A stretch of 64,000 nt of DNA from Candidatus Peregrinibacteria bacterium (GTDB lineage Bacteria > Patescibacteriota > Gracilibacteria > UM-FILTER-43-11). The position numbers were made by a program, and so were the translations under genes. Below, in pieces: positions 13,310 to 50,494 of the stretch (within the stretch, counting starts at the first letter, position 1; every line of letters starts with the position of its first letter). The notes beneath the pieces are model-generated. The model worked only from the letters and a program-made list of their open reading frames with translations, made no database searches and was not told the DNA's origin. The stretch spans positions 8,781 through 72,780 of the forward strand of contig JAFGTE010000033.1 in the NCBI GenBank assembly GCA_016934215.1, written 5' to 3'.

Positions 13310-13957
13310 ATGATCAGCTTCCACAACGTTACCAAAAAATACGATTCTCATTTAGTGCTCGACCGAGTCAGTTTTAGTATTGAAAACAACGAGTTTGTGG
13401 TGCTTACAGGGACTTCTGGGGCCGGCAAGTCCACGGTGATTGCACTGCTTATTGGGGCTGAAAAACCAACGAGCGGAAGTGTTGAGGTCGACGAAATGCA
13501 TGTGAGTGAAATGGACTTAGAAACCCTGCAATTGTACCGCCGCAAGATCGGAGTGGTTTATCAGGATTACAAATTACTTGAGAAAAAGACAGTTTTTGAG
13601 AACGTGGCTTTTGCTTTGGAGGTATGTAATGAATCGGATGAACTGGTTCATGAAAGGGTGCCACAGGTTCTTGGAAAAGTCGGGTTGTTAAGTTTTCAGG
13701 ATAAATTTCCTGACCAGCTTTCCGGTGGTGAAAAGCAGCGGCTCGCTATTGCACGCGCGCTCGTGCATAAACCACGTCTGATTATTGCTGATGAGCCAAC
13801 GGGTAATTTAGATGAGGCTAATGTGAGAGGGATAATAGAATTGCTTAACCAACTTCATGAAGAAGGAAACACGGTACTTTTGACTACGCACGATCCTTTT
13901 GTGCGGGAGCTGGTAGGGGGAAGGAGCCTGAAGCTGGAAAATGGTAAAATTATTTAA
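13310..13957 (+). CDS. ftsE: FtsE-like ABC transporter ATP-binding protein.
   Basis: It has Walker [10 protein letters not shown], the motif [14 protein letters not shown], the signature [15 protein letters not shown] and Walker [13 protein letters not shown]. No ftsX gene is adjacent. Confidence 0.7.
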
Positions 13958-13968
13958 TTCCTTATTTA

Positions 13969-15081
13969 ATGGCAAAAAAGATCGATTACAAATCAAGTGG
14001 CGTTCATTACGATTTACTGGATCCATTTAAAGTTGCTGCACAAAAGGCAGCCGCTTCCACTGACGGAAACATAAATTATTTAAAAGGATTCAAAGAAGTT
14101 CCTAAAAGCCGGGGTGAAAGCGCTTTTTTAATCGAAACGGATTCCGGTTATATCGCTCATGTAGAAGAAACCCTGGGAACTAAAAATTTGATTGCGGATG
14201 CTATGTATAAGATCACAGGGAAATCCTATTACGATTCTATTGCTATTGATACCGTTGCGGCGATTGTAAATGATCTGATCACCATGGGTGCGCTTCCGAT
14301 GACCCTCGCTATGCATTTGGCCGTAGGGGATTCGCATTGGTTTGAAGATCAGCAGAGACAAAATGATCTTGTTATGGGTTGGAAAAAGGGCTGTGATTTA
14401 TCTTCTGCCTTATGGGCAGGCGGGGAAACGCCGACCTTGCAGGGAATTTTACAAAAGGATGCCGTTCTTCTTTCTGGGTCAGCTGTGGGGATTATTCAGA
14501 ATAAAGATTCGGTTATTCGTTCCTCTGATCTGCAAGACGAAGACCGGATTATTCTCCTTGAGAGTTCCGGTATTCATGCTAATGGGGCTAGTTTATGCCG
14601 TAAGATCGCTTCAGAAATTCCTGAAGGGTATCAAACCAAAATATCTGATGGACGCATGTTTGGTGAAGCAGTACTCGATCCCACTGTTATCTATGTTCCT
14701 GTTTTAAAAGATTGCATGCTGAATAACATTAAACTGCATTATGTGTCACATATTACAGGTCATGGCTGGAGGAAAATTATGAGAGCGGTTGAACCTTATT
14801 CATATATTATTCAAGCTATTCCGGAGCCCCCGGCTGTATTCGGATTTCTTCAGGAACAATCCGGACTCAGCGATGAAGAGATGTATGGAACTTTTAATAT
14901 GGGTGCGGGTTTTGCGCTTTATGTGGCACCGGAAGATACGAAAGCCGTTCTGGATATATGTGTGAAAAATAACATTAAAGGAATTGATGCGGGTTATGTG
15001 AAAACCCGAGGCGAAGAAAAAAAAGTGTCTATCGTTCCGAAAGGAATTAAATTTGGAAGCGAAACATTAGCTGTCCGATAA
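13969..15081 (+). CDS. AIR-synthase-related (PurM-like) protein.
   Basis: Supporting motifs are YKSSGV, IAIDTVAAIVNDLITMGALP, AGGETP and LESSGIHANGASLCRKI, which correspond to PurM family motifs. Confidence 0.6.
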   Translation: MAKKIDYKSSGVHYDLLDPFKVAAQKAAASTDGNINYLKGFKEVPKSRGESAFLIETDSGYIAHVEETLGTKNLIADAMYKITGKSYYDSIAIDTVAAIVNDLITMGALPMTLAMHLAVGDSHWFEDQQRQNDLVMGWKKGCDLSSALWAGGETPTLQGILQKDAVLLSGSAVGIIQNKDSVIRSSDLQDEDRIILLESSGIHANGASLCRKIASEIPEGYQTKISDGRMFGEAVLDPTVIYVPVLKDCMLNNIKLHYVSHITGHGWRKIMRAVEPYSYIIQAIPEPPAVFGFLQEQSGLSDEEMYGTFNMGAGFALYVAPEDTKAVLDICVKNNIKGIDAGYVKTRGEEKKVSIVPKGIKFGSETLAVR

Positions 15082-30134: not shown

Positions 30135-32228
30135 CTAAGTACCAATCGCAATCCAGTTAAAACTTTCACCGTTGTTACTTGAATCAACGGTTATGGTGAA
30201 TTGAGTAGTGGTTGTATTTGAAATATGATACCAAGTGTCGTTGTTACCGATTGTATCGGAACTATTCGGAGTAACTACCACAACAGGCGGACTGGTGAAA
30301 GTTTTATTAAAGGCTGTTGTTACGGAGTTGCCCGCTGTATTGGCAGTAGTTCCGTAGTCGATTACAGGTACACCAGTAGCGATAGCTTCAAAGGCTCCTC
30401 CGTCATTGCTTAATACCCATTGATTACTTGCGGCATCATATCCAATGATGCCGTTATTATCGGAACCCTGATTTACGATAATACCAACGTTTGCTCCGGG
30501 GCCGGTGTTATCATAATCAAGTGTAATAATGGTTCCATTAGTAAAGATATTGTCAGTGAATCCAAAAGCTGCGTTTGAGCTATCCCAGCCGAATAAATGA
30601 TCTGTTCCGTCATCAAAAGTAATATAGGAAAGTGCGGCGTTTCCATTGCCGATTTCCATTACCGCTCCTGTTCTTTCGATATCTATCGGGGCTGTTGCTG
30701 AAGCAATGCCGATACCGATGTTACCGGATGCGTCGATACTCCAATCGTTACTTGCCACAATAAAATCGTTGGTGCCGGTGTTGATTGTGAAGGCGCCATT
30801 GCCTGTAGTAAGGGTTTTGTCCACGTCGGTTGTATAAACACCCTCGAAATCCGAAGAACCGCCACCACCTGAGGCCGTAATGTCTTCCCAGACACTTCCG
30901 CTCCAGATGTAGGTGTTGTTGTCACTCGTGTTGTGGTAGATTTGACCCGCGACCGGACTTCCGGGGGCTGAAGACGCATTGTGCAAAGCGACATCGCGGA
31001 TCTGATTCTGGCCAAAGCTCAGATCGTCTGAAATCTGAAACTGGTCATTTGTATCGTTCCAGGTCAGGTTTTCCCAGGTGTTGCTATTTCTGCCTAAGCT
31101 CAGGGTTCCGTCGCTGTCGGTAGCCGCGTGGTCGTCTGCGACGTAGGCTTGTCCAATAACTGCTAAGTTGCCTTCAGCCCTCAGAGCGTCTGTTAAGGTG
31201 AAACGGCTATTGGAAGAATCCCAGAAAAGAGTTTCAGCCAGAGCGGTTCCAAATTGTAAGGTTACGTTGCCTCCGGTATCATCGTTATCAAGGATGAATG
31301 TATTTGAATCAGTTCCGATGTCAGTGTTTTGGGTATGGTTTCCTTCGCCTCCGCCACCCCCTTCCACTCTGGAAATCACCAGTGCAGAACCGCCTGCCAA
31401 AGTAGCAATGTTGGAGCTACCACTACTGCGTTGGGCCTGTATTTTAAGTTTATCCCCGGCACTCAGGTCTAAAGTGAAACTGCGGCTTGCTGTGGCATCC
31501 CCCTGAGTCGCGGTTCGGTTATACATTTTTGCGATAGAGCCAGCAACAGCGGCATAGCCTGAACCGGTATCCAGCATCAGCCTGGCTTCTGATTCACTTC
31601 GGTTGGTGCCGGAGGTAATATCGGTTGTGACTGCGTAGTTTACATAATAGGTTCCGTCAGTATTTACGGTGATTTCAGCTGAACCGGTTGAATGAGTGAA
31701 GTCAGTCGTTTTCTTTCTTTCTGTTCCCAGGGGTATATCCGTGAAGCCTGCATCAATACTGGTTCCTCCCGTTGAATCGTAGGCATCAAAGTATTCTGCG
31801 GTTCCACTACTTCCTCCACTACCAAAAGTCGTGAAGGCACCCCCATCGTTGCTATATTCCCACTCGTTAGTTGTGGCATTGTAGCGAATGGTTCCGTCAT
31901 TGTCGGAACCCTGGTTGGCGATAATATTAACCGTATTACCCGCTCCTGCATTATCTGCGTCCAGTGTTATATTTAAACCGTTCTGGCTAAAACCTCCGTC
32001 TATCGTGAGATCATCACTCAGATCAAAATTGAGGGTTGAGCTGTTCCATCTCAGGTATTTCCCAAGTGAAGCGCCGAACTGAAGGGTCACATTGCCTCCG
32101 GTATCATCAGCGTCCAGAATAATCGTGTTGGAAGCATTTTCATCTTCGTCGCTTGGCACAAAGTCGGCCAGTGCAAGTTGTGGAAGCAGTAGGGTAATAC
32201 CTGCGATGATGACGAGGAGTTTTTTCAT
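30135..32228 (-). CDS. Large secreted repeat protein A, a member of the TLQFG / NQNQIK / GQIYHNT module family.
   Basis: The signal peptide is MKKLLVIIAGITLLLPQLALA. Modules include NTIILDADDTGGNVTLQFGASLGKYLRWNSS, NTFILDNDDTGGNVTLQFGTALAETLFWDSSNSRF and NDQFQISDDLSFGQNQIRDVALHN..PVAGQIYHNTSDNNTYIWSGSVWEDIT. Confidence 0.75.
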   Translation of the reverse strand: MKKLLVIIAGITLLLPQLALADFVPSDEDENASNTIILDADDTGGNVTLQFGASLGKYLRWNSSTLNFDLSDDLTIDGGFSQNGLNITLDADNAGAGNTVNIIANQGSDNDGTIRYNATTNEWEYSNDGGAFTTFGSGGSSGTAEYFDAYDSTGGTSIDAGFTDIPLGTERKKTTDFTHSTGSAEITVNTDGTYYVNYAVTTDITSGTNRSESEARLMLDTGSGYAAVAGSIAKMYNRTATQGDATASRSFTLDLSAGDKLKIQAQRSSGSSNIATLAGGSALVISRVEGGGGGEGNHTQNTDIGTDSNTFILDNDDTGGNVTLQFGTALAETLFWDSSNSRFTLTDALRAEGNLAVIGQAYVADDHAATDSDGTLSLGRNSNTWENLTWNDTNDQFQISDDLSFGQNQIRDVALHNASSAPGSPVAGQIYHNTSDNNTYIWSGSVWEDITASGGGGSSDFEGVYTTDVDKTLTTGNGAFTINTGTNDFIVASNDWSIDASGNIGIGIASATAPIDIERTGAVMEIGNGNAALSYITFDDGTDHLFGWDSSNAAFGFTDNIFTNGTIITLDYDNTGPGANVGIIVNQGSDNNGIIGYDAASNQWVLSNDGGAFEAIATGVPVIDYGTTANTAGNSVTTAFNKTFTSPPVVVVTPNSSDTIGNNDTWYHISNTTTTQFTITVDSSNNGESFNWIAIGT

Positions 32229-41400: not shown

Positions 41401-43488
41401 ATGGCAGATTTTAAAGAAGCTCTTAAAATGGTACGCAATTTCGGTATTATTGCGCATATTGATGCCGGTAAAACAACCGTTACGGAGCGTGTTTTGTATT
41501 ACACCGGTAAAAACTACAAAATCGGCGAAGTACATGAAGGAGAAGCTACGATGGACTGGATGGAACAGGAACAGGAGCGTGGTATTACGATCACAGCAGC
41601 CGCCACAACCTGTTTTTGGAAGGGGCATCAATATAACATTATCGATACTCCCGGGCATGTAGATTTTACAGCGGAAGTAGAACGTTCTATGCGCGTGCTT
41701 GATGGAGGCGTTGTGGTGTTTGATGGTGTGGCCGGAGTGGAACCTCAGTCGGAAACGGTATGGCGTCAGGCTGATAAATACCATGTGCCTCGTATGTGCT
41801 TTATCAATAAACTGGATCGTACAGGTGCCAGTTTTGAAAAATCTTTCCAAAGTATTTTAAAAAGACTGACCAAAAAAGCTTCCCCCTTACAGCTGCCTAT
41901 TGGTATTGAAAGTGGTTTTAAAGGACTCATTGATTTAATTGAGATGAAGGCCACCATTTATAAAGATGATATGGGCAAGGAAATGGAACAGATTGATATT
42001 CCGGAAGACATGAAAGCTTCGGCTGAAGAATGGCGTGCCAAGCTTCTTGAAAAAGTGGCGGAGGGAGATGAAATTTTTATGGAAAAATATCTGGGAGGTG
42101 AGGAGTCTACTGTGGAAGAGTTAAAAGCGGCTATTCGCCGTGCAGTGATTGCCAATCAGTTTGTGCCGGTTCTAACGGGTACGGCGCTTAAAAATAAAGG
42201 GGTACAGCTGCTTCTGGATGCGGTCAACGATTATCTGCCCTCGCCTCTTGATATTCCGCCAATTCATGGCCATATGGTTGATGACGAAGCTAAAATAGTA
42301 GAACGTCATACCAGTCCTGATGAACCGCTTGGCGCTCTGGTGTTTAAAATTGCCACGGATCCTTTTGTCGGCCGTCTGTGTTTTGTGCGCGTGTATTCCG
42401 GTGTGCTTAAATCCGGCTCTTATATATATAATTCTTCTCAGGGGGAAAAAGAGCGCATTGGCCGACTTGTTGAAATGCATGCCAATGAACGAAAAGAAAT
42501 CCAGGAAATTTCAGCCGGTCATATTGGTGCGGTCATCGGACTCAAGTCAGTTCGCACGGGAAGCACGCTGGTGGGTGACGGCGCGCCAAAAGTTATTCTG
42601 GAATCCATTACCTTTCCTGAACCGGTTATTTCCATTGCCATTGAACCCAAGACCAAGGCGGATCAGGAAAAGATGGCCCTTAGTTTGCAGAAACTGGCCG
42701 AAGAAGATCCCACATTCCGGGTGCGTACGGATGAGGAAACCAATCAGACCATTATTTCCGGTATGGGAGAGCTTCATCTGGAGGTTTTGGTGGATCGCAT
42801 GAAACGTGAATTCAAAGTGGAGGCCAATGTCGGCCGCCCTCAGGTAGCTTATCGGGAGACTGTTCAGAAAGAAGTGGAGGAAGAAGAAAAGTACGCTAAG
42901 CAGACAGGTGGCCGCGGTCAGTACGGACACGTTTTAATCCGCATCATGCCGAACGAAGCCGGTAAAGGATACGAATTTATCGATTCCATCGTGGGAGGAC
43001 GCATTCCCAGGGAATATATTCCCGGTGTGCAGAAAGGAATTCTGGAAGCCCTGACGCGTGGTGTGATTGCCGGGTACCAGGTGGTTGATGTGAAGGTAGA
43101 GCTTTACGATGGTTCCTATCATGATGTGGACTCTTCGGAACTTGCTTTTAAAATGGCGGCCAGCATTGCTTTCCAGCGTGGCGCCAAAAAAGCGGATCCC
43201 ATTCTTTTAGAGCCCATGATGAGCGTGGAAGTGGTCACTCCGGAAGAGTTTATGGGCGATGTGATGGGCAATCTTAATTCCAAACGCGGTCAGATTGATA
43301 GCATGGGAGACCGCGGAGAAGCCAAAACCATTACGGCTAAGGTGCCGCTTTCTGAAATGTTCGGTTATGCCACCGATCTTCGCTCTATGACTCAGGGAAG
43401 AGCCAGTTATACGATGGAATTTTCTCACTACGCCAAGGTTCCGAAGAACATCGAAGAGAAAATCAAGACGGAGCGTGGAATGACCTGA
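41401..43488 (+). CDS. fusA: Elongation factor G.
   Basis: Conserved blocks are [31 protein letters not shown] and [16 protein letters not shown]. Confidence 0.97.
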
Positions 43489-43623: not shown

Positions 43624-44124
43624 ATGAAAAAGAAATCAATAAAAAGCTTTTCCAAATCGCTTATGTCAGCCACACTCAGGGGTCTGGCGATTTTTGCCAT
43701 ATTCGGAACTGCCTTGTATGCTTACGCGTCAGTGACCTATCCGGTCAGCCAGCCTAACCCCGTTTCCGGCGTGGTGGGGCTTTATGTGGGGGCCACGGAT
43801 GGTACCACGGATGGAGATATAGGTGGTTATGATGCGGCTGCTAGTGATTGTACGTCAAAGTTTCCTGATAGCCATATATGTACCCCTATGGAAATAATTA
43901 ACACTTACAATCATAATTTATCGGCTGTTTCTGGTGTAAGTGGGGCTGTTTGGCTGAATTCAGGTGCTCCTGCAAATACAACACCAGCTGTCAATGATTG
44001 TCAGGGGTGGACGAAAGGTGCGGGAGAATATGGTTTTTATGGCGTAATCTGGTTATTCGATAATGTTGATTCCTCTGGAATTGCGCCGTGTCCTTTTGGA
44101 CTTCCATTCGCATGCTGTAAATAA
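43624..44124 (+). CDS. Small secreted Cys-containing protein of unknown function.
   Basis: The ATG at 43624 gives MKKKSIKSF...LAIFAIFGTALYAYA, a signal peptide. It has 7 Cys, including a C-terminal FACCK. The block GGYDAAASDC...HICTPMEI...AVWLNS...CQGWT loosely recalls DUF1554/endostatin-like lectin-fold proteins, but this is unverified. Confidence 0.55.
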   Translation: MKKKSIKSFSKSLMSATLRGLAIFAIFGTALYAYASVTYPVSQPNPVSGVVGLYVGATDGTTDGDIGGYDAAASDCTSKFPDSHICTPMEIINTYNHNLSAVSGVSGAVWLNSGAPANTTPAVNDCQGWTKGAGEYGFYGVIWLFDNVDSSGIAPCPFGLPFACCK

Positions 44125-44164
44125 TTTATAAATGTTTGAAATAACAATAAAATCTAAGATAAAT

Positions 44165-47100
44165 ATGAAAACTATAAAGTCATTATTTATTATTCCATTT
44201 CTAGCTCTTCTGTTTTTATTTCCGCAAGTTGGTTATGCAGTTAATGAAGTATGTTATGCAGGTCAGGATGGCTGTCCTGATCCGCCAGATTCTTCAAAAT
44301 GTGTACCTCCTCCAGTACTACTTTTGGGTTGTCCACCAGGGACTGTTTGGATTGGAAATGCTTCCACTGGTCAATGTTCCCCTGCAGTTACTTGTTCTGC
44401 GGGAGTGGATAGATTCTATTGTGAAACGGGTAGTTGCTGGACGCAGCCCACAGCCGGGCCGCCTCCACCACCAGCTGCCTGTACCACTGCCAATGTGACC
44501 ACTGGGTCCGCAAATGCCTGTTGTACGGACGGTCAGATTGTTGTAAGGAACGGTACAAGCAATACCTGGGAATGTGCTGATCTTACGCCGGGACTTTGGT
44601 CCGAAACAGGAGTCAATGATATCTATTTTGATGGTGGAAATGTGGGAGTTGGAACAGATGCACCTCTTTCAAAATTCCATGTGGATGGTCAACTCAGAAT
44701 TTCGAATGCTGCAAATAGTGCCAATTATCTGACTATTGGACATGGTGGTACTCATTCCTATTTTAATAATGAAGGAGTAGGTAATATTGAACTTAGAATA
44801 GGGGGGAATACTAAATTAGCAGTTGAACCTGATGGAAGTGTAATTTCCGATGAATATTGTTTGGGTACCGATTGTATTACTGAATGGCCTAGTGGTGGCC
44901 TTTGGTCTGAGAGCACTGATCCCGGAAGTATTTATTATAATGACGGTAATGTGGGAATTGGCACCAATATTCCGGCTTATGAACTAGATGTTGCTGGGGA
45001 CGCAAATGCGACCCGGTTATGTATTAATGGTGATTGTAAACCTGCCTGGCCTACTTATACAGGTGCTGATTTATGGGAAGAAAATTGGGGTCATGTTTAC
45101 AGGCCCACAGGTCATGTTGCTGTAGGACTTCCTACTACTACTACTCCTGGCGGGGTGTTGCAGGTGGCAACGGATGTCCCTGTTGTAATAAATAATTGTG
45201 AGTCTTCTTTTCTTATCGGTACCTGTACCGGCCCTCATGTTGAGATGGACTCCAATTCACTTCAGGCAAAAGCAACTAATGTTACCGTTGCTACTTTGAA
45301 TCTTCAGGAATTGGGGGGTAATTTGCAAGTCGATGGCAGTACGCTGGTGGTGGATGGCACCAATAACAAAGTGGGTATTGGTACCACTTCTCCGGCCGGG
45401 GCATTACATATTGCAACCTACCAGGAAGCTGATCTTACAAATGCGGAAGCGTCCTTTATGATAGGGCCGACTACAAGTTACCATCTTGAAATGGATTCGA
45501 ATGATATTCAGGGTAAGGCGGATACCGTGCATGCCGGTACACTCAATTTACAGGCGGATGGCGGAAGTTTAGATGTTGGCAATAACAACAATCTTTTTGT
45601 TGAAACGGCTACCAGCAGAGTCGGTATTAATACTGATGATCCTGCTTATGCTTTGCATGTCATAGGGCAGGTAAATGGAAGCACAGGGCTTTGTATAGCT
45701 GGTGTTTGCAGAACCACCTGGCCTGAAAGTAGTACCAGTCTATGGACTGAGAATGGTTCAAATATCTATAGGAGTGGCGGTGGTAATGTGGGGATTGACG
45801 ATACGGTTCCGTTGGCAACATTAAGTGTTGTCGGTCAGGTACGCGCTTCTGACCTGGCTGATGAAGCCGAGTATATAGAAATAGATCACGGGGGTGCCAA
45901 TGCTCTTATAAATTGGGCTGGTGACGGCAATCTGGATTTCAGAAGAACCGGTACCACTTTAATGACTTTGGAGCAGGATGGTGATCTGGGAATTGGTGAT
46001 ACGACACCGGATGCAAAACTTGATGTTGAAGGTGGTATTAGAGCGCATAGTATTTATGGCGAAAATAACGATACTTTCGATATTACATCGGCTGATAACT
46101 ACTTTATTGATTTAGAGTCCAATGATGATACTTACGGGCTTATTATAAGGGAAAGTACCGTACAAAATGGTGACGCAACTGCGGATTATTTAAACATTGA
46201 GCCAAAAGATACTTATACTGGATTTGGCGCTTCTCAATCTGGTGCAGATTTGCTGCTTTATGAAGATGGTAAGCTCGAAATTGTGAATGGACCTGATAAT
46301 AACGGTAGTACGGCTTCTTTGGTGGTAGGGGATGGTTCAAATACGCTTTACATGGATGGAAATGAAATAGACAGTGACGGGTCGTTGTATTTGCAACATA
46401 ATAGCAGCGGAAATGTTTATATCGATGGCGGTGGTAAGGTTACGATTGGGACTGCTACTCCTGCTGCTTCAACTTCATTAACAATAGTTACTCCAACCAG
46501 CAGTGAATTATACTATACAGGTATCGATGTTAGTTCACCGTCTAATGGGGTTGGTATTATCGGCAGATCTACGGGCAATACGGGTGTTATGGGTACAACT
46601 GATTACGGCGTTGGTGTTATTGGTATGGCTACACATGGTAATGGTATGGAGGCACAAGGTGGTTATGCAGGGATTATGGCAGGCGGTGATACCGCTGGTG
46701 GTATTTTCCAAAGCGGAGCTACTAGTGCCTATATCGCTTATGCTGGTTATGTTGTAGATGGTAATGGTGATATTCGTGCAAGTGGCAGTATACTTCCTGG
46801 TTCAAGTAAAATATACACAACTAACGGTGATCTGGTTTTTGAACCGAATAGTGAATCTGCTGATCGTTTTTATGTTTCGAATGAAGGTCAAATGGTATTG
46901 GTCGGCACTAATGGAATTTGGCTGGCCAGCGCCAGTTATGCCGGTAAGATTGGGGGCGGAACCTGGACGAATAGCTCTGATGCAAGGTTAAAAGATGTGC
47001 ATGGTGCTTATGAAAAGGGCTTGGCAGATATTCTTGGGCTGAAGCCGGTCACTTTTAATTATAAGAAGGATAACCCAAAAGGTCTTCCTTCCAATGACGA

Positions 47101-47314
47101 ATATATTGGTTTTATTGCTCAGGATGTGGAACCGATTTTCCCGGAGGCGATCAGTACGGATGATGACGGATATTTACAGTTTGATATGCATTCAATTAAT
47201 GTTGCCGCTATCAATGCAATCAAACAGCTAAAAGCTGAAAAGGACGCTGAAATTGCTGAACTCAAGGCAGTAGTTTGCGAACTTAAACCGGAGGCGGAAG
47301 TTTGTAATAAATAA
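44165..47314 (+). CDS. Tail-fibre-like secreted protein with a C-terminal peptidase-S74 (endosialidase intramolecular chaperone) domain.
   Basis: The signal peptide is MKTIKSLFIIPFLALLFLFPQVGYA. The N-terminus is Cys/Pro-rich. It carries repeated LW(S/T)E...IYY.DGNVGIGT..P...L.V.G units and repeated C(I/L)xGxCxxxWP units. The C-terminus reads SSDARLKDVHGAYEKGLADILGLKPVTFNYKKD...YIGFIAQDVEPIFPEAIS...INAIKQLKAEKDAEIAELKA. Confidence 0.8.
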   Translation: MKTIKSLFIIPFLALLFLFPQVGYAVNEVCYAGQDGCPDPPDSSKCVPPPVLLLGCPPGTVWIGNASTGQCSPAVTCSAGVDRFYCETGSCWTQPTAGPPPPPAACTTANVTTGSANACCTDGQIVVRNGTSNTWECADLTPGLWSETGVNDIYFDGGNVGVGTDAPLSKFHVDGQLRISNAANSANYLTIGHGGTHSYFNNEGVGNIELRIGGNTKLAVEPDGSVISDEYCLGTDCITEWPSGGLWSESTDPGSIYYNDGNVGIGTNIPAYELDVAGDANATRLCINGDCKPAWPTYTGADLWEENWGHVYRPTGHVAVGLPTTTTPGGVLQVATDVPVVINNCESSFLIGTCTGPHVEMDSNSLQAKATNVTVATLNLQELGGNLQVDGSTLVVDGTNNKVGIGTTSPAGALHIATYQEADLTNAEASFMIGPTTSYHLEMDSNDIQGKADTVHAGTLNLQADGGSLDVGNNNNLFVETATSRVGINTDDPAYALHVIGQVNGSTGLCIAGVCRTTWPESSTSLWTENGSNIYRSGGGNVGIDDTVPLATLSVVGQVRASDLADEAEYIEIDHGGANALINWAGDGNLDFRRTGTTLMTLEQDGDLGIGDTTPDAKLDVEGGIRAHSIYGENNDTFDITSADNYFIDLESNDDTYGLIIRESTVQNGDATADYLNIEPKDTYTGFGASQSGADLLLYEDGKLEIVNGPDNNGSTASLVVGDGSNTLYMDGNEIDSDGSLYLQHNSSGNVYIDGGGKVTIGTATPAASTSLTIVTPTSSELYYTGIDVSSPSNGVGIIGRSTGNTGVMGTTDYGVGVIGMATHGNGMEAQGGYAGIMAGGDTAGGIFQSGATSAYIAYAGYVVDGNGDIRASGSILPGSSKIYTTNGDLVFEPNSESADRFYVSNEGQMVLVGTNGIWLASASYAGKIGGGTWTNSSDARLKDVHGAYEKGLADILGLKPVTFNYKKDNPKGLPSNDEYIGFIAQDVEPIFPEAISTDDDGYLQFDMHSINVAAINAIKQLKAEKDAEIAELKAVVCELKPEAEVCNK

Positions 47315-47333: not shown

Positions 47334-48023
47334 ATGAATAATTTCAGAAAATTTTTACCTTTATTAGTACTGGCACTGATGGTGCTTGCGGCTTGTGCTA
47401 AAGAGCAAATGGGACAGGAGGTAAAAACTATGGTGCAGGTGCAGCCGGCCACGGAAGCGGCGACGGATGATGCTGATACTGAGGAAATGGTGCGTGAATC
47501 CAGATATGGTATGGGCCTTAAATGTAGTATGTTAAAAAACACTCAAACACAGCAAGAATGCGAAGTTGAATTAAATGATGTGATTGGCTCAATGCTGTCT
47601 TCCGAAATTGTCAGTACTTTTGACGCAAAGCGTTGTAAAGAATTAGCGCCTGCTGTTGCCGCGGATTGTGAAAGTAAAATTGCCGCTATGGGTGTGCAAG
47701 GGCCTGTGAGTGAAGAAGAGCGCGCCATGTTTGCTGAGGCTATCAAACCTGTTCGACCTGAAGCTGCCGGACCTGATGCTGAAGAAGCTGAATCAATTTA
47801 TGATAAAACCAAGTGTGCTGAATTAAAAACACCTGGTTATCAGGCTTATTGTGAAAAAACGATAGATAGTCGTATGGATCAGGATAAACTCGGATCAATA
47901 GTTGAATCAGATAATGTCAGTCGGTGCGATGAATTGGTGACGGAAAGCCTCAGAGAAGATTGTAGGGCATATTTTGGCATTGAACCTGAAGAAGTTGAGG
48001 AAGAAACACCTGACGAAGTTTGA
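47334..48023 (+). CDS. Acidic lipoprotein with repeated C-x-E-L-x(7-8)-C units.
   Basis: The lipobox is LVLALMVLAAC. Repeats are RCKELAPAVAADC, KCAELKTPGYQAYC and RCDELVTESLREDC. Confidence 0.6.
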   Translation: MNNFRKFLPLLVLALMVLAACAKEQMGQEVKTMVQVQPATEAATDDADTEEMVRESRYGMGLKCSMLKNTQTQQECEVELNDVIGSMLSSEIVSTFDAKRCKELAPAVAADCESKIAAMGVQGPVSEEERAMFAEAIKPVRPEAAGPDAEEAESIYDKTKCAELKTPGYQAYCEKTIDSRMDQDKLGSIVESDNVSRCDELVTESLREDCRAYFGIEPEEVEEETPDEV

Positions 48024-48081: not shown

Positions 48082-48348
48082 ATGTCACTCAAGAAAGCGC
48101 CCGTACTAAAAGTTATCGCTATTATCTGGATCGTTTTTGCCAGTCTATATGTGGTTTACAGTGAATACCAGCGCGTGCAGATCATGGTGGCTCAGCGGGC
48201 TTATAACACCGGTTTGCGAGATGCTGTAAATCAGCTTATTACGCAAGCTCAGACCTGCAAAGCTATACCAGTTACTTCCGGTGAAGTAAGTGTGAACCTG
48301 ATCAATATTGACTGTCTGAATGCTGCTGCCGAAGAAACAGCTGAATAG
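48082..48348 (+). CDS. Small membrane-anchored hypothetical protein.
   Basis: It is 88 aa with a single N-terminal TM segment (VLKVIAIIWIVFASLYVVY). Confidence 0.45.
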   Translation: MSLKKAPVLKVIAIIWIVFASLYVVYSEYQRVQIMVAQRAYNTGLRDAVNQLITQAQTCKAIPVTSGEVSVNLINIDCLNAAAEETAE

Positions 48349-48375: not shown

Positions 48376-48404
48376 TTGACACTAAAAATTCTATTTGCTA
48401 AAAT
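48376..48404 (+). promoter_or_regulatory. Near-consensus sigma70-like promoter candidate for tuf.
   Basis: TTGACA (48376-81), a 17-nt spacer and TAAAAT (48399-404) lie 40 nt upstream of the tuf ATG. Confidence 0.5.
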
Positions 48405-48444: not shown

Positions 48445-49638
48445 ATGGCTGAAGGAAAATTCGATCGCAGTAAGCCACATGTAAACGTTGGTACCATTGG
48501 TCACGTGGATCATGGTAAAACCACTCTTACCGCTGCTATTACTGCTGTTGCCGCTGCGAAAATGGGCGGCATTAACAAAGCCGTTGCATTTGATCAGATC
48601 GACAATGCGCCGGAAGAAAGAGAACGTGGGATTACCATCGCTACGTCTCACCAGGAATACGAAACCAGTAAGCGTCATTACGCTCACGTAGACTGTCCTG
48701 GTCATGCTGACTATGTAAAGAACATGATTACAGGCGCAGCACAAATGGATGGTGCCATTTTGGTTGTATCTGCGGCTGATGGACCTATGCCACAGACCCG
48801 TGAACACATTCTGCTTGCCCGTCAGGTAAATGTACCTTATGTCGTTGTTTTTCTGAACAAGTGCGATATGGTGGATGATCCTGAACTTCTTGATCTTGTA
48901 GAGATGGAGGTTCGTGAGCTTCTGACGAAATACGAATTTCCGGGTGACGATATTCCTATTGTCCGCGGTTCTGCTCTTAAGGCACTTGAAAACCCAACCG
49001 GTCCGGATGCTGAGCCTGTTGTTGAACTGCTTGCTAAACTGGATGAATATATTCCGCAACCAGAACGCGCTTTGGATAAAGAATTCCTAATGCCTGTTGA
49101 AGATATCTTCTCTATCAAAGGTCGTGGTACGGTGGCTACCGGTCGTATTGAACAAGGTGTCGTGAACGTGAACGATGAAGTAGAAATTGTTGGTCTTAAG
49201 CCTACCCGAAAAGTGGTGGTTACCGGTGTTGAAATGTTCCGCAAACTGCTGGATCGTGGCGAAGCCGGTGATAACGTAGGACTTCTCCTTCGCGGTGTGG
49301 AACGTGATGAAATCGAAAGAGGCCAGGTGTTGGCAAAACCGGGTTATATTACCCCCCACACTGAATTTACGGCTGAAATTTACGTTCTGACCAAAGAGGA
49401 AGGCGGACGCCATACGCCATTCTTTAAAGGTTACAAACCTCAGTTCTATATTCGAACCACCGATGTAACCGGTGAGGTTCATTTGCCTGCCGGAACCGAG
49501 ATGGTGATGCCTGGTGATAGTATCAACCTTGATATCACTCTTGGTAAGCCTATCGCGATGGACGAAGGTACCCGCTTCGCTATTCGTGAGGGAGGCCGCA
49601 CGGTTGGTGCCGGTGTGGTTACCAAAGTGAAGAAATAG
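48445..49638 (+). CDS. tuf: Elongation factor Tu.
   Basis: Conserved blocks are [41 protein letters not shown] and NKCD. Confidence 0.98.
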
Positions 49639-50143: not shown

Positions 50144-50494
50144 ATGAAATCGTTCAAAGAGGCTATTGTGTGGCAGAAGAGTTATAAACTCACTCTGTTC
50201 ATTTACCGAATAACTGCTCAGTTCCCAAGGGCTGAAGAATTTGGTTTAAAATCGCAGTTGCGTAGAGCTGCTGTGTCTCTGATATCTAATTTTGCAGAAG
50301 GGTTTAAGCGTATCAGCTATAAAGAGCGTATTCAGTATTACAAGATGTCTGAGGGTTCTTTGGAAGAGATAAAGTGTCAAACGGAGTTATGTAAGGATTT
50401 AGGTTATCTGAGTTTGAAGATTTATGGTCAATTGGAGGTGTTGGAAGAAGAAGTTGGTAGATTGCTATGGCGTTGGATAAGCGTTCAAAAATAG
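50144..50494 (+). CDS. Four-helix-bundle protein of the 23S rRNA intervening-sequence protein family.
   Basis: Family-typical sequence is present: AIVWQKSYKLTLFIYRITAQFPRAEEFGLKSQLRRAAVSLISNFAEGF.R.SYKE..QYY.MSEGSLEE. Confidence 0.85.
   Translation: MKSFKEAIVWQKSYKLTLFIYRITAQFPRAEEFGLKSQLRRAAVSLISNFAEGFKRISYKERIQYYKMSEGSLEEIKCQTELCKDLGYLSLKIYGQLEVLEEEVGRLLWRWISVQK

Follow-up and report, generated by a model that had tools for sequence, protein, structure and literature searches.

Phage fibres that end in an intramolecular chaperone of the peptidase S74 type are represented by several solved structures, including the K1F endosialidase (3GW6), the GA-1 neck appendage (3GUD), the T5 protein pb1 (4UW8) and the S16 long tail fibre (6F45). 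An intramolecular chaperone auto-processing (ICA) domain is also found in MyRF (7DC3), a eukaryotic membrane-bound transcription factor, in which cleavage frees a DNA-binding part and not a surface fibre. S74-capped fibres are already established as cellular proteins too, in the form of the mosaic adhesive trimer (MAT) fibres of Bdellovibrio bacteriovorus, which share the loop motif V-G-G/N-pi-x-x-P-x-x-x-L and are split into S74 and non-S74 members; the same loop motif precedes the ICA domain of MyRF (Caulton et al. 2024, PMC10769870). The S782A mutant of the MAT protein Bd3182 blocks self-cleavage, another MAT protein, Bd2740, carries a C-type-lectin tip, and the MAT-bearing organisms named in that study include Micavibrio, Ca. 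Uabimicrobium and Omnitrophica, and no member of the Candidate Phyla Radiation (CPR) (PMC10769870). Here we describe an S74-capped fibre gene of a CPR bacterium, located between fusA and tuf in a stretch of 64,000 nucleotides (the window) from Candidatus Peregrinibacteria bacterium, assembly GCA_016934215.1, contig JAFGTE010000033.1.

CPR bacteria, or Patescibacteria, are thought to live attached to other microbes, and the molecules that make the contact are largely unknown. Among the papers available to us, a search turned up none that connects S74 domains with Patescibacteria. Our analysis indicates that the product of this gene is likely to be an exported fibre, which would trimerise via its S74 domain, shed that domain at Ser938, and use a variable tip to bind another cell. 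We infer trimerisation and attachment to a host from homology to S74 proteins and to the MAT fibres of Bdellovibrio; the architecture of the protein and the conservation of its locus are given below.

Architecture of the fibre and its S74 domain

The open reading frame (ORF) of the fibre occupies positions 44132-47314 (+), with the ATG at 44165 as its likely start, and this gives a protein of 1049 aa. The public gene call, P0001, begins at the same ATG, and residue numbers throughout refer to the 1049-aa form.

The C-terminus, aa 938-1049 (46976..47311, +), matches the Peptidase_S74 intramolecular-chaperone auto-processing domain PF13884 with an E-value of 8.4e-12 and 45.6 bits (cut-off 22), over hidden Markov model positions 1-56 of 58. 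In a scan of the whole genome the fibre scores 51.3 bits and is the single S74 gene in the assembly. The SDARLK motif is formed by aa 938-943 (nt 46976-46993). Seven residues, S938, D939, K943, G982, A985, Q986 and P993, are invariant across 50 aligned diverse homologues, and the Ser and Lys of the S74 domain are likewise invariant in eight members of the family to which the organism belongs. Searched against PDB, the S74 profile finds the tail fibres 8jov (5e-11) and 6f45 (5e-10), MyRF 7dc3 (2.4e-8) and the GA-1 protein 3gud, and the chain of the latter starts (SDERHK) exactly at the Ser that is aligned with S938. Ser938 and Lys943 are the catalytic pair, and by analogy with these proteins cleavage is predicted between Ser937 and Ser938; this would yield a mature chain of 912 aa and a released fragment of 112 aa. 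The latter ends with a long helix and the pair Cys1038/Cys1047.

In the AlphaFold2 (AF2) model the S74 domain (aa 935-1040) is predicted with high confidence, at a predicted local distance difference test score (pLDDT) of 91-97. For this domain, Foldseek finds the ICA domain of MyRF, 7dc3, at an E-value of 1e-4 and a probability of 1.0, with a TM-score of 0.57-0.61 over 131 columns; 3gw6 and 3gud are also among the matches, weakly.

At the other end of the protein, a hydrophobic N-terminal stretch is a predicted signal peptide, aa 1-25 (the 75 nt ahead of 44240, i.e. 44165..44239, +), with a predicted Sec cleavage after VGYA and before VNEVC. This call is a heuristic one, made from hydrophobicity and cleavage context and not by a dedicated predictor; the context AxA|V(N/G)E(V/T)C recurs in homologues with the same N-terminal module, and 67 of the 93 S74-bearing homologues of the fibre have a hydrophobic N-terminus. 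The signal peptide is followed by a module, aa 26-143 (44240..44593, +), which is defined by its composition and by lineage-restricted matches. Of its 118 aa, 12 are Cys (10.2%) and 16 are Pro (13.6%); elsewhere in the protein these residues make up 1.1% and 3.4%, respectively. We found only 17 representatives with a relative of this N-module (E<=1e-3) among 1.84 billion proteins, and those matches that cover most of the module begin right behind a signal peptide. The N-module is presumed to be the cell-proximal anchor of the fibre.

The shaft, aa 144-625 (44594..46039, +), is made of repeated modules with LW.E, capping-loop (GIGT..P...L.V) and Cys-pair (C(I/L)xGxCxxxWP) motifs. A self-BLAST of the fibre finds no long internal repeats, and the repetition is at the level of motifs only. 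The full unit 'LW.E ... GIGT..P...L.V' is found at aa 144, 246 and 526 and, in a degenerate form, at aa 303, which makes three to four copies, and the GIGT loop alone is seen about seven times, in strict form at aa 159, 262, 402 and 485 and in degenerate form at aa 540, 607 and 758. The Cys-pair motif is strict at aa 286 and 510, and a variant of it, CLGTDCITEWP, is at aa 232. The loops are the sole well-modelled parts of the shaft in the AF2 model, with pLDDT of 70-90. Shaft residues 396-509 match the Bd3182 chain 8ojn in a phmmer search at an E-value of 0.021, which is weak and not significant.

A sequence-only reading of the window had placed an S74 domain at about 46973-47290 and proposed a profile search as a check; the SDARLK motif lies inside these limits, and the match obtained is well above the threshold. 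The Cys/Pro-rich N-terminus that it described is borne out by the counts above. Its estimate of at least six repeats holds for the GIGT loops and is too high for the full units, and of its three C(I/L)xGxCxxxWP motifs two are strict, while the third is the variant.

The shaft is followed by a middle domain, aa 626-760 (46040..46444, +), conserved between the closest relatives: its identity is 62-92% to protein P0002 and 56-88% to protein P0003, as compared with 12-40% in the flanking segments. Then comes the distal tip, aa 761-937 (46445..46975, +), characterised by low identity and by insertions and deletions ahead of the cleavage site; the stretch just before this site is the most variable one among the closest relatives. 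The tip is presumed to be the ligand-binding end, exposed once the S74 domain is released. With a profile of aa 600-937, the only meaningful matches in PDB are Bd2133 (1.5e-4), Bd3182 (1.8e-3) and Bd1334 (0.018), and the alignments of this region with the MAT structures 8ond, 8ojn and 8oml pass through the capping loops. The top PDB matches in a Foldseek search with the AF2 monomer of the fibre are the MAT fibres Bd2133, Bd1334, Bd3182 and Bd2439, together with the ICA domain of MyRF. Since the monomer model is weak, the fold matches of the shaft (E-values of 1e-4 to 1e-3 at low TM-scores) are weak evidence, though fold and profile matches all lead in the same direction.

Comparison of relatives indicates that the fibre changes in segments. 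Identity between the fibre and P0002 reaches 84-92% over aa 301-400 and 651-700 but is 12-40% elsewhere, and the patches that the fibre shares with P0003 are different ones; as DNA, the conserved patches are 69-78% identical (76-78% when compared with the P0002 locus). The N-module is found in proteins that end in S74 (P0123, P0129 and P0132) and in others that end in a lectin-like domain of the type encoded by the first gene of the cassette, p185 (P0121, P0122, P0124, P0126 and P0127). Judged from these alignments, the fibre is a mosaic that diverges much faster than its neighbour genes, and it diversifies within its slot by replacement of segments and by exchange of the S74 end for a lectin-like one.

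Taken together, these features fit the following scheme. The signal peptide would be removed on export, and the N-module would stay near the cell surface, where it may dock on the products of two neighbouring genes, lipo229 and p88. The S74 domain would gather three chains and prime the folding of an intertwined β-helical shaft, then cut itself off at Ser938 by means of the Ser938/Lys943 pair, freeing the 112-aa fragment and baring the tip. The bared tip would bind a ligand on another cell, most likely a glycan.

Several observations weigh against this scheme. BLASTP comparison of the N-module with the MAT N-domain, run on the homologues from Bdellovibrio and Pseudobdellovibrio, detected no similarity, as the alignments cover only the loops and the S74 end and leave out aa 26-143, and the anchoring is therefore a guess; the tip holds no recognisable ligand-binding domain; and lipo229 is found in just 8 of the 31 genomes of the family. 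Finally, only the S74 domain and the loops are well modelled in the AF2 monomer, which has a mean pLDDT of 54 and values of 30-40 in the N-module, although a poor monomer model of the shaft would be expected for an obligately intertwined trimer.

The fibre cassette between fusA and tuf

Four closely spaced co-directional genes, p185, the fibre, lipo229 and p88, are located between fusA (41401-43488) on the left and tuf (48445-49638) on the right. The NCBIfam collection gives no match for any of the four products, and Pfam gives nothing credible for p185, lipo229 and p88.

The first gene, p185 (43624..44124, +), codes for a small exported protein with an N-terminal hydrophobic signal or anchor and a C-terminal domain with six Cys; positions occupied by Cys, His, Trp and Asp are invariant among 18 homologues. 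The AF2 model has pLDDT of about 90 over aa 50-166, and the top 50 PDB matches in Foldseek are all C-type-lectin-like, including agkisacucetin, with weak scores (best E-value 1.4e-2, TM-score 0.4-0.5); because of these scores, we call a C-type-lectin-like fold of the domain probable. In relatives, p185 is found downstream of fusA at 33-67% identity. Its domain is duplicated in some of them, up to three copies, and is also fused behind the N-module of the fibre.

The third gene, lipo229 (47334..48023, +), codes for a predicted lipoprotein with the lipobox LAAC, an acidic linker and repeated Cys-pair units. These units number four and resemble one another; the two Cys of each are spaced by about 13 residues, in the form (K/R)C..L ... 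C(E). The protein is 39% identical in locus L002 and 33% in locus L003, and its gene adjoins the S74 gene wherever both share a contig (in genome G012 they are separated by a contig end). The last gene, p88 (48082..48348, +), specifies a small protein with one N-terminal transmembrane helix, hydrophobic at about aa 1-29; it is 79% identical in L002 and is present in most related loci.

The gene order of the cassette is kept in L002 and L018-L026, that is, in L002, L026 and the loci of eight related genomes. Identity to relatives is 80-92% for fusA, 86-94% for tuf, 40-79% for p88, 33-67% for p185, 27-46% for lipo229, and a patchy 22-57% for the fibre. In L003, a third context beside murein genes, an S74 fibre is again accompanied by lipo229-like and p88-like genes.

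We compared the whole-genome places of PF13884 with those of tuf in 31 genomes of the family, 17 of which have the domain. In 14 of these 17, the S74 domain precedes tuf by 0.6-2.6 kb and shares its contig and strand; two of the other three are split by contig ends but consistent with this arrangement, and in one the gene is elsewhere or its place unknown. In seven family loci that were examined, fusA is seen on the other side of the S74-tuf arrangement. Genomes of the family without S74 still have fibre-like genes near tuf: G014 has a fibre-like ORF without S74 upstream of tuf, and G005 and G021 have such ORFs within a few kb of tuf on the same contig. The tuf-upstream position, with the same partner genes, is conserved across many genera. 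Outside the family, the S74 gene is away from tuf in all 25 Patescibacteria genomes with both places listed, and in four distant CPR genomes rpsG-fusA-tuf-rpsJ are contiguous, with no cassette between fusA and tuf (these outgroups were found by an EF-G search of genome contigs, at most 72% identity). Because the slot is conserved in the family and is absent from the outgroups and from other genomes of the phylum, the cassette is an old insertion kept vertically in one bacterial family.

A strong match to a sigma-70-like promoter precedes tuf (48376..48404, +), with TTGACA-17-TAAAAT and an extended TG; it agrees with 11 of 12 consensus positions, which makes it the best site in the region, as a consensus match only. 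This suggests that tuf has retained a promoter of its own downstream of the insertion. In L002, the public call at 13904-14995 is a 347-aa ORF on the minus strand, in the place where tblastn finds tuf on the plus strand at 94% over residues 1-362; this call is probably an artefact of gene calling, or else tuf is truncated there.

It is tempting to see in the four genes a single attachment device, in which lipo229 and p88 would form a membrane dock for the N-module, p185 would serve as a second, exchangeable head, and placement in the str operon would tie production to the translation machinery, i.e. to growth on a host; we regard this extension as speculative and rather doubtful.

Three other genes of the window deserve mention. 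An island between rpsG and fusA includes a further fibre gene, at 30135-32228 (-), with BclA_C-like (TNF-like) and H-type lectin or gp53-like C-terminal domains; these tips are of the non-S74 kind, so that S74 and non-S74 tips are both present in the genome, in two islands of one operon. Between rpsJ and rplC, at 50144-50494, there is a gene for a 116-aa four-helix-bundle protein of the 23S-rRNA-intervening-sequence or bAvd-like type. It raised the possibility of a diversity-generating retroelement acting on a lectin-like gene, which was dropped, as no template-like DNA repeat was found in 28000-50000. At 15-2405 the window encodes a large protein with PKD, three lamin-tail and staphylococcal-nuclease domains. 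It has the look of a nuclease that is secreted or surface-bound, and scavenging of nucleotides would be a plausible role for it in an organism whose genome is reduced.

Other functions and a phage origin

The product of the fibre gene might be a surface-bound enzyme, similar to tailspikes, whose distal β-helix, after release of S74, cuts or de-acetylates the polysaccharide of another cell. The K1F endosialidase belongs to the classical S74 proteins, and a β-helix of hyaluronidase, 4ufq, is among the weak fold matches of the fibre (E-value 7e-3, probability 0.35). No glycoside hydrolase, lyase or esterase family, however, is matched in Pfam or NCBIfam, and the tip, at about 180 aa and with its variability and indels, is more in keeping with binding than with a conserved active site, so that an enzyme of this kind seems unlikely.

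A purely structural part of the envelope, with no recognition of a partner cell, can also be envisaged, for example a fibre that acts as a spacer, as a fibril associated with an S-layer, as a decoy for phages or in self-aggregation. The single copy inside a highly expressed housekeeping operon could suit a constitutive part of the envelope, and recognition could be done by the separate lectin-bearing fibres of the rpsG-fusA island. We consider such a role quite improbable, given that the fibre is a mosaic with far lower identity between relatives than fusA and tuf, and that relatives exchange its end for a lectin-like domain. Recognition proteins under diversifying pressure typically show such fast mosaic divergence and exchange of ends, although the pattern could be produced by decoys too.

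The remaining question is whether the gene is a cellular one. Resemblance to phage tail fibres extends over the whole length of the protein: 303 predicted viral structures match it at E<=1e-3, with 14-19% identity, mostly tail fibres annotated with an 'intramolecular chaperone auto-processing domain' from cyanophages and uncultured phages, and PHROG tail-fibre families match it at 1.4e-19, extending into the tip region and reaching down to aa ~574. At the level of sequence, tblastn against 50,697 phage records gives 11 weak matches, all at most 40% identical, and 10 of them are confined to the last ~100-150 aa of the fibre; the record of the phiFa distal tail fibre covers 33% of the query. A scan of IMG/VR with the fibre found no relative.

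The assembly (1.01 Mb in 34 contigs) is 95.8% complete, and a search of the whole genome gave no match to TerL_ATPase, Terminase_6N, HK97 capsid, portal, sheath or Baseplate_J families. No phage structural gene was found in the window, the content of which is rpoB, rpoC, rpsL, rpsG, fusA, tuf, the S10 operon, a Mur ligase, an EPSP_synthase-family enzyme (PF00275), pheS and further housekeeping genes; both tyrosine recombinases of the genome are on other contigs, and the base composition and GC content are ordinary. Virions of phages assemble in the cytoplasm, and their fibres have no signal peptide, which makes the predicted Sec signal of this fibre hard to square with a virion fibre.

That the gene is a relic, or a domesticated form, of the tail fibre of a prophage, tailocin or contractile injection system, serving a virion-like particle now or formerly, is thus highly improbable, as its likeness to tail fibres and the 11 phage records, phiFa among them, is outweighed by the export signal, the genome free of terminase, capsid, portal, sheath and baseplate genes, the distant recombinases, the slot and partner genes conserved over many genera, and the low identity, mostly in S74, of the phage matches. 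The data support the fibre as a gene owned by the cell, with a vertically kept location, and not a prophage remnant.

This is also what the sequence-only reading had proposed, on the ground that it saw no phage genes nearby; the significant S74 match and a neighbourhood free of phage structural genes are the two points on which that proposal had been staked. Its description of the gene as an orphan is right in that the genome has a single S74 gene, and wrong in that homologues occupy the same slot in relatives.

Comparison with described fibres

The exported, S74-capped adhesive fibre that we favour would be a compact candidate for a contact molecule of CPR bacteria and one that can be expressed, with 1049 aa, a predicted cleavage at Ser938, a variable tip and conserved partner genes. 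The fixed slot between fusA and tuf offers a handle with which variants of the fibre can be pulled from metagenomes and their tips compared with co-occurring hosts.

Among described systems, the fibre is most similar to the MAT fibres of Bdellovibrio, such as Bd3182 (8OJN, 8ONB and 8ONC), which are its best fold and profile matches in PDB. Both are chromosomally encoded, Sec-exported proteins of about 1000 aa; both have a conserved module straight after the signal peptide (unrelated in sequence in the case of the fibre), a long shaft with V-G-x-x..P...L capping loops (those of the fibre, (N/K)VGIGT..P...L.V, are one residue longer), and a C-terminal S74 domain with SDxxxK. In both, moreover, some members of the family carry another tip in place of the S74 end, among them a C-type-lectin fold in Bd2740 and a domain of probable lectin-like fold here. 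The differences are as follows. The β-rich MAT N-domain of ~130 aa was not found in the fibre, whose N-module is analogous to it in position and not homologous. There is one S74 copy per genome as opposed to 13 in Bdellovibrio; the latter is a diderm predator, whereas the organism studied here is a CPR bacterium with a genome of ~1 Mb; and the fibre gene of the latter sits in a fixed slot between fusA and tuf, together with conserved genes for a lipoprotein and a small membrane protein. Because the MAT N-domain is missing, the fibre is not filed as a member of the MAT family, even though it would work like a MAT fibre.

Chaperone-capped phage fibres, i.e. the four solved examples named at the outset, share with the protein the spacing of Ser and Lys, loops of GIGT type, and the order of shaft and then chaperone. 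They differ from it in having no export signal and in belonging to a virion gene context, and the sequence identity, as noted above, is low and mostly limited to the last ~110 aa. Of the solved structures, the one that superposes best on the S74 domain (TM-score ~0.6) is the ICA domain of MyRF, which has an altogether different task.

S74 domains are common in the phylum: of 301 Patescibacteria genomes sampled, 67 have PF13884, usually at the end of very large ORFs. The version found in this family is shorter than those other fibres, and it has its own N-module, partner genes and place between fusA and tuf. As S74-capped cellular fibres are established, this one stands out by its private N-module, its partner genes and its fixed slot; the locus also extends the MAT design to an unrelated lineage of ultra-small bacteria, with a different anchor module.

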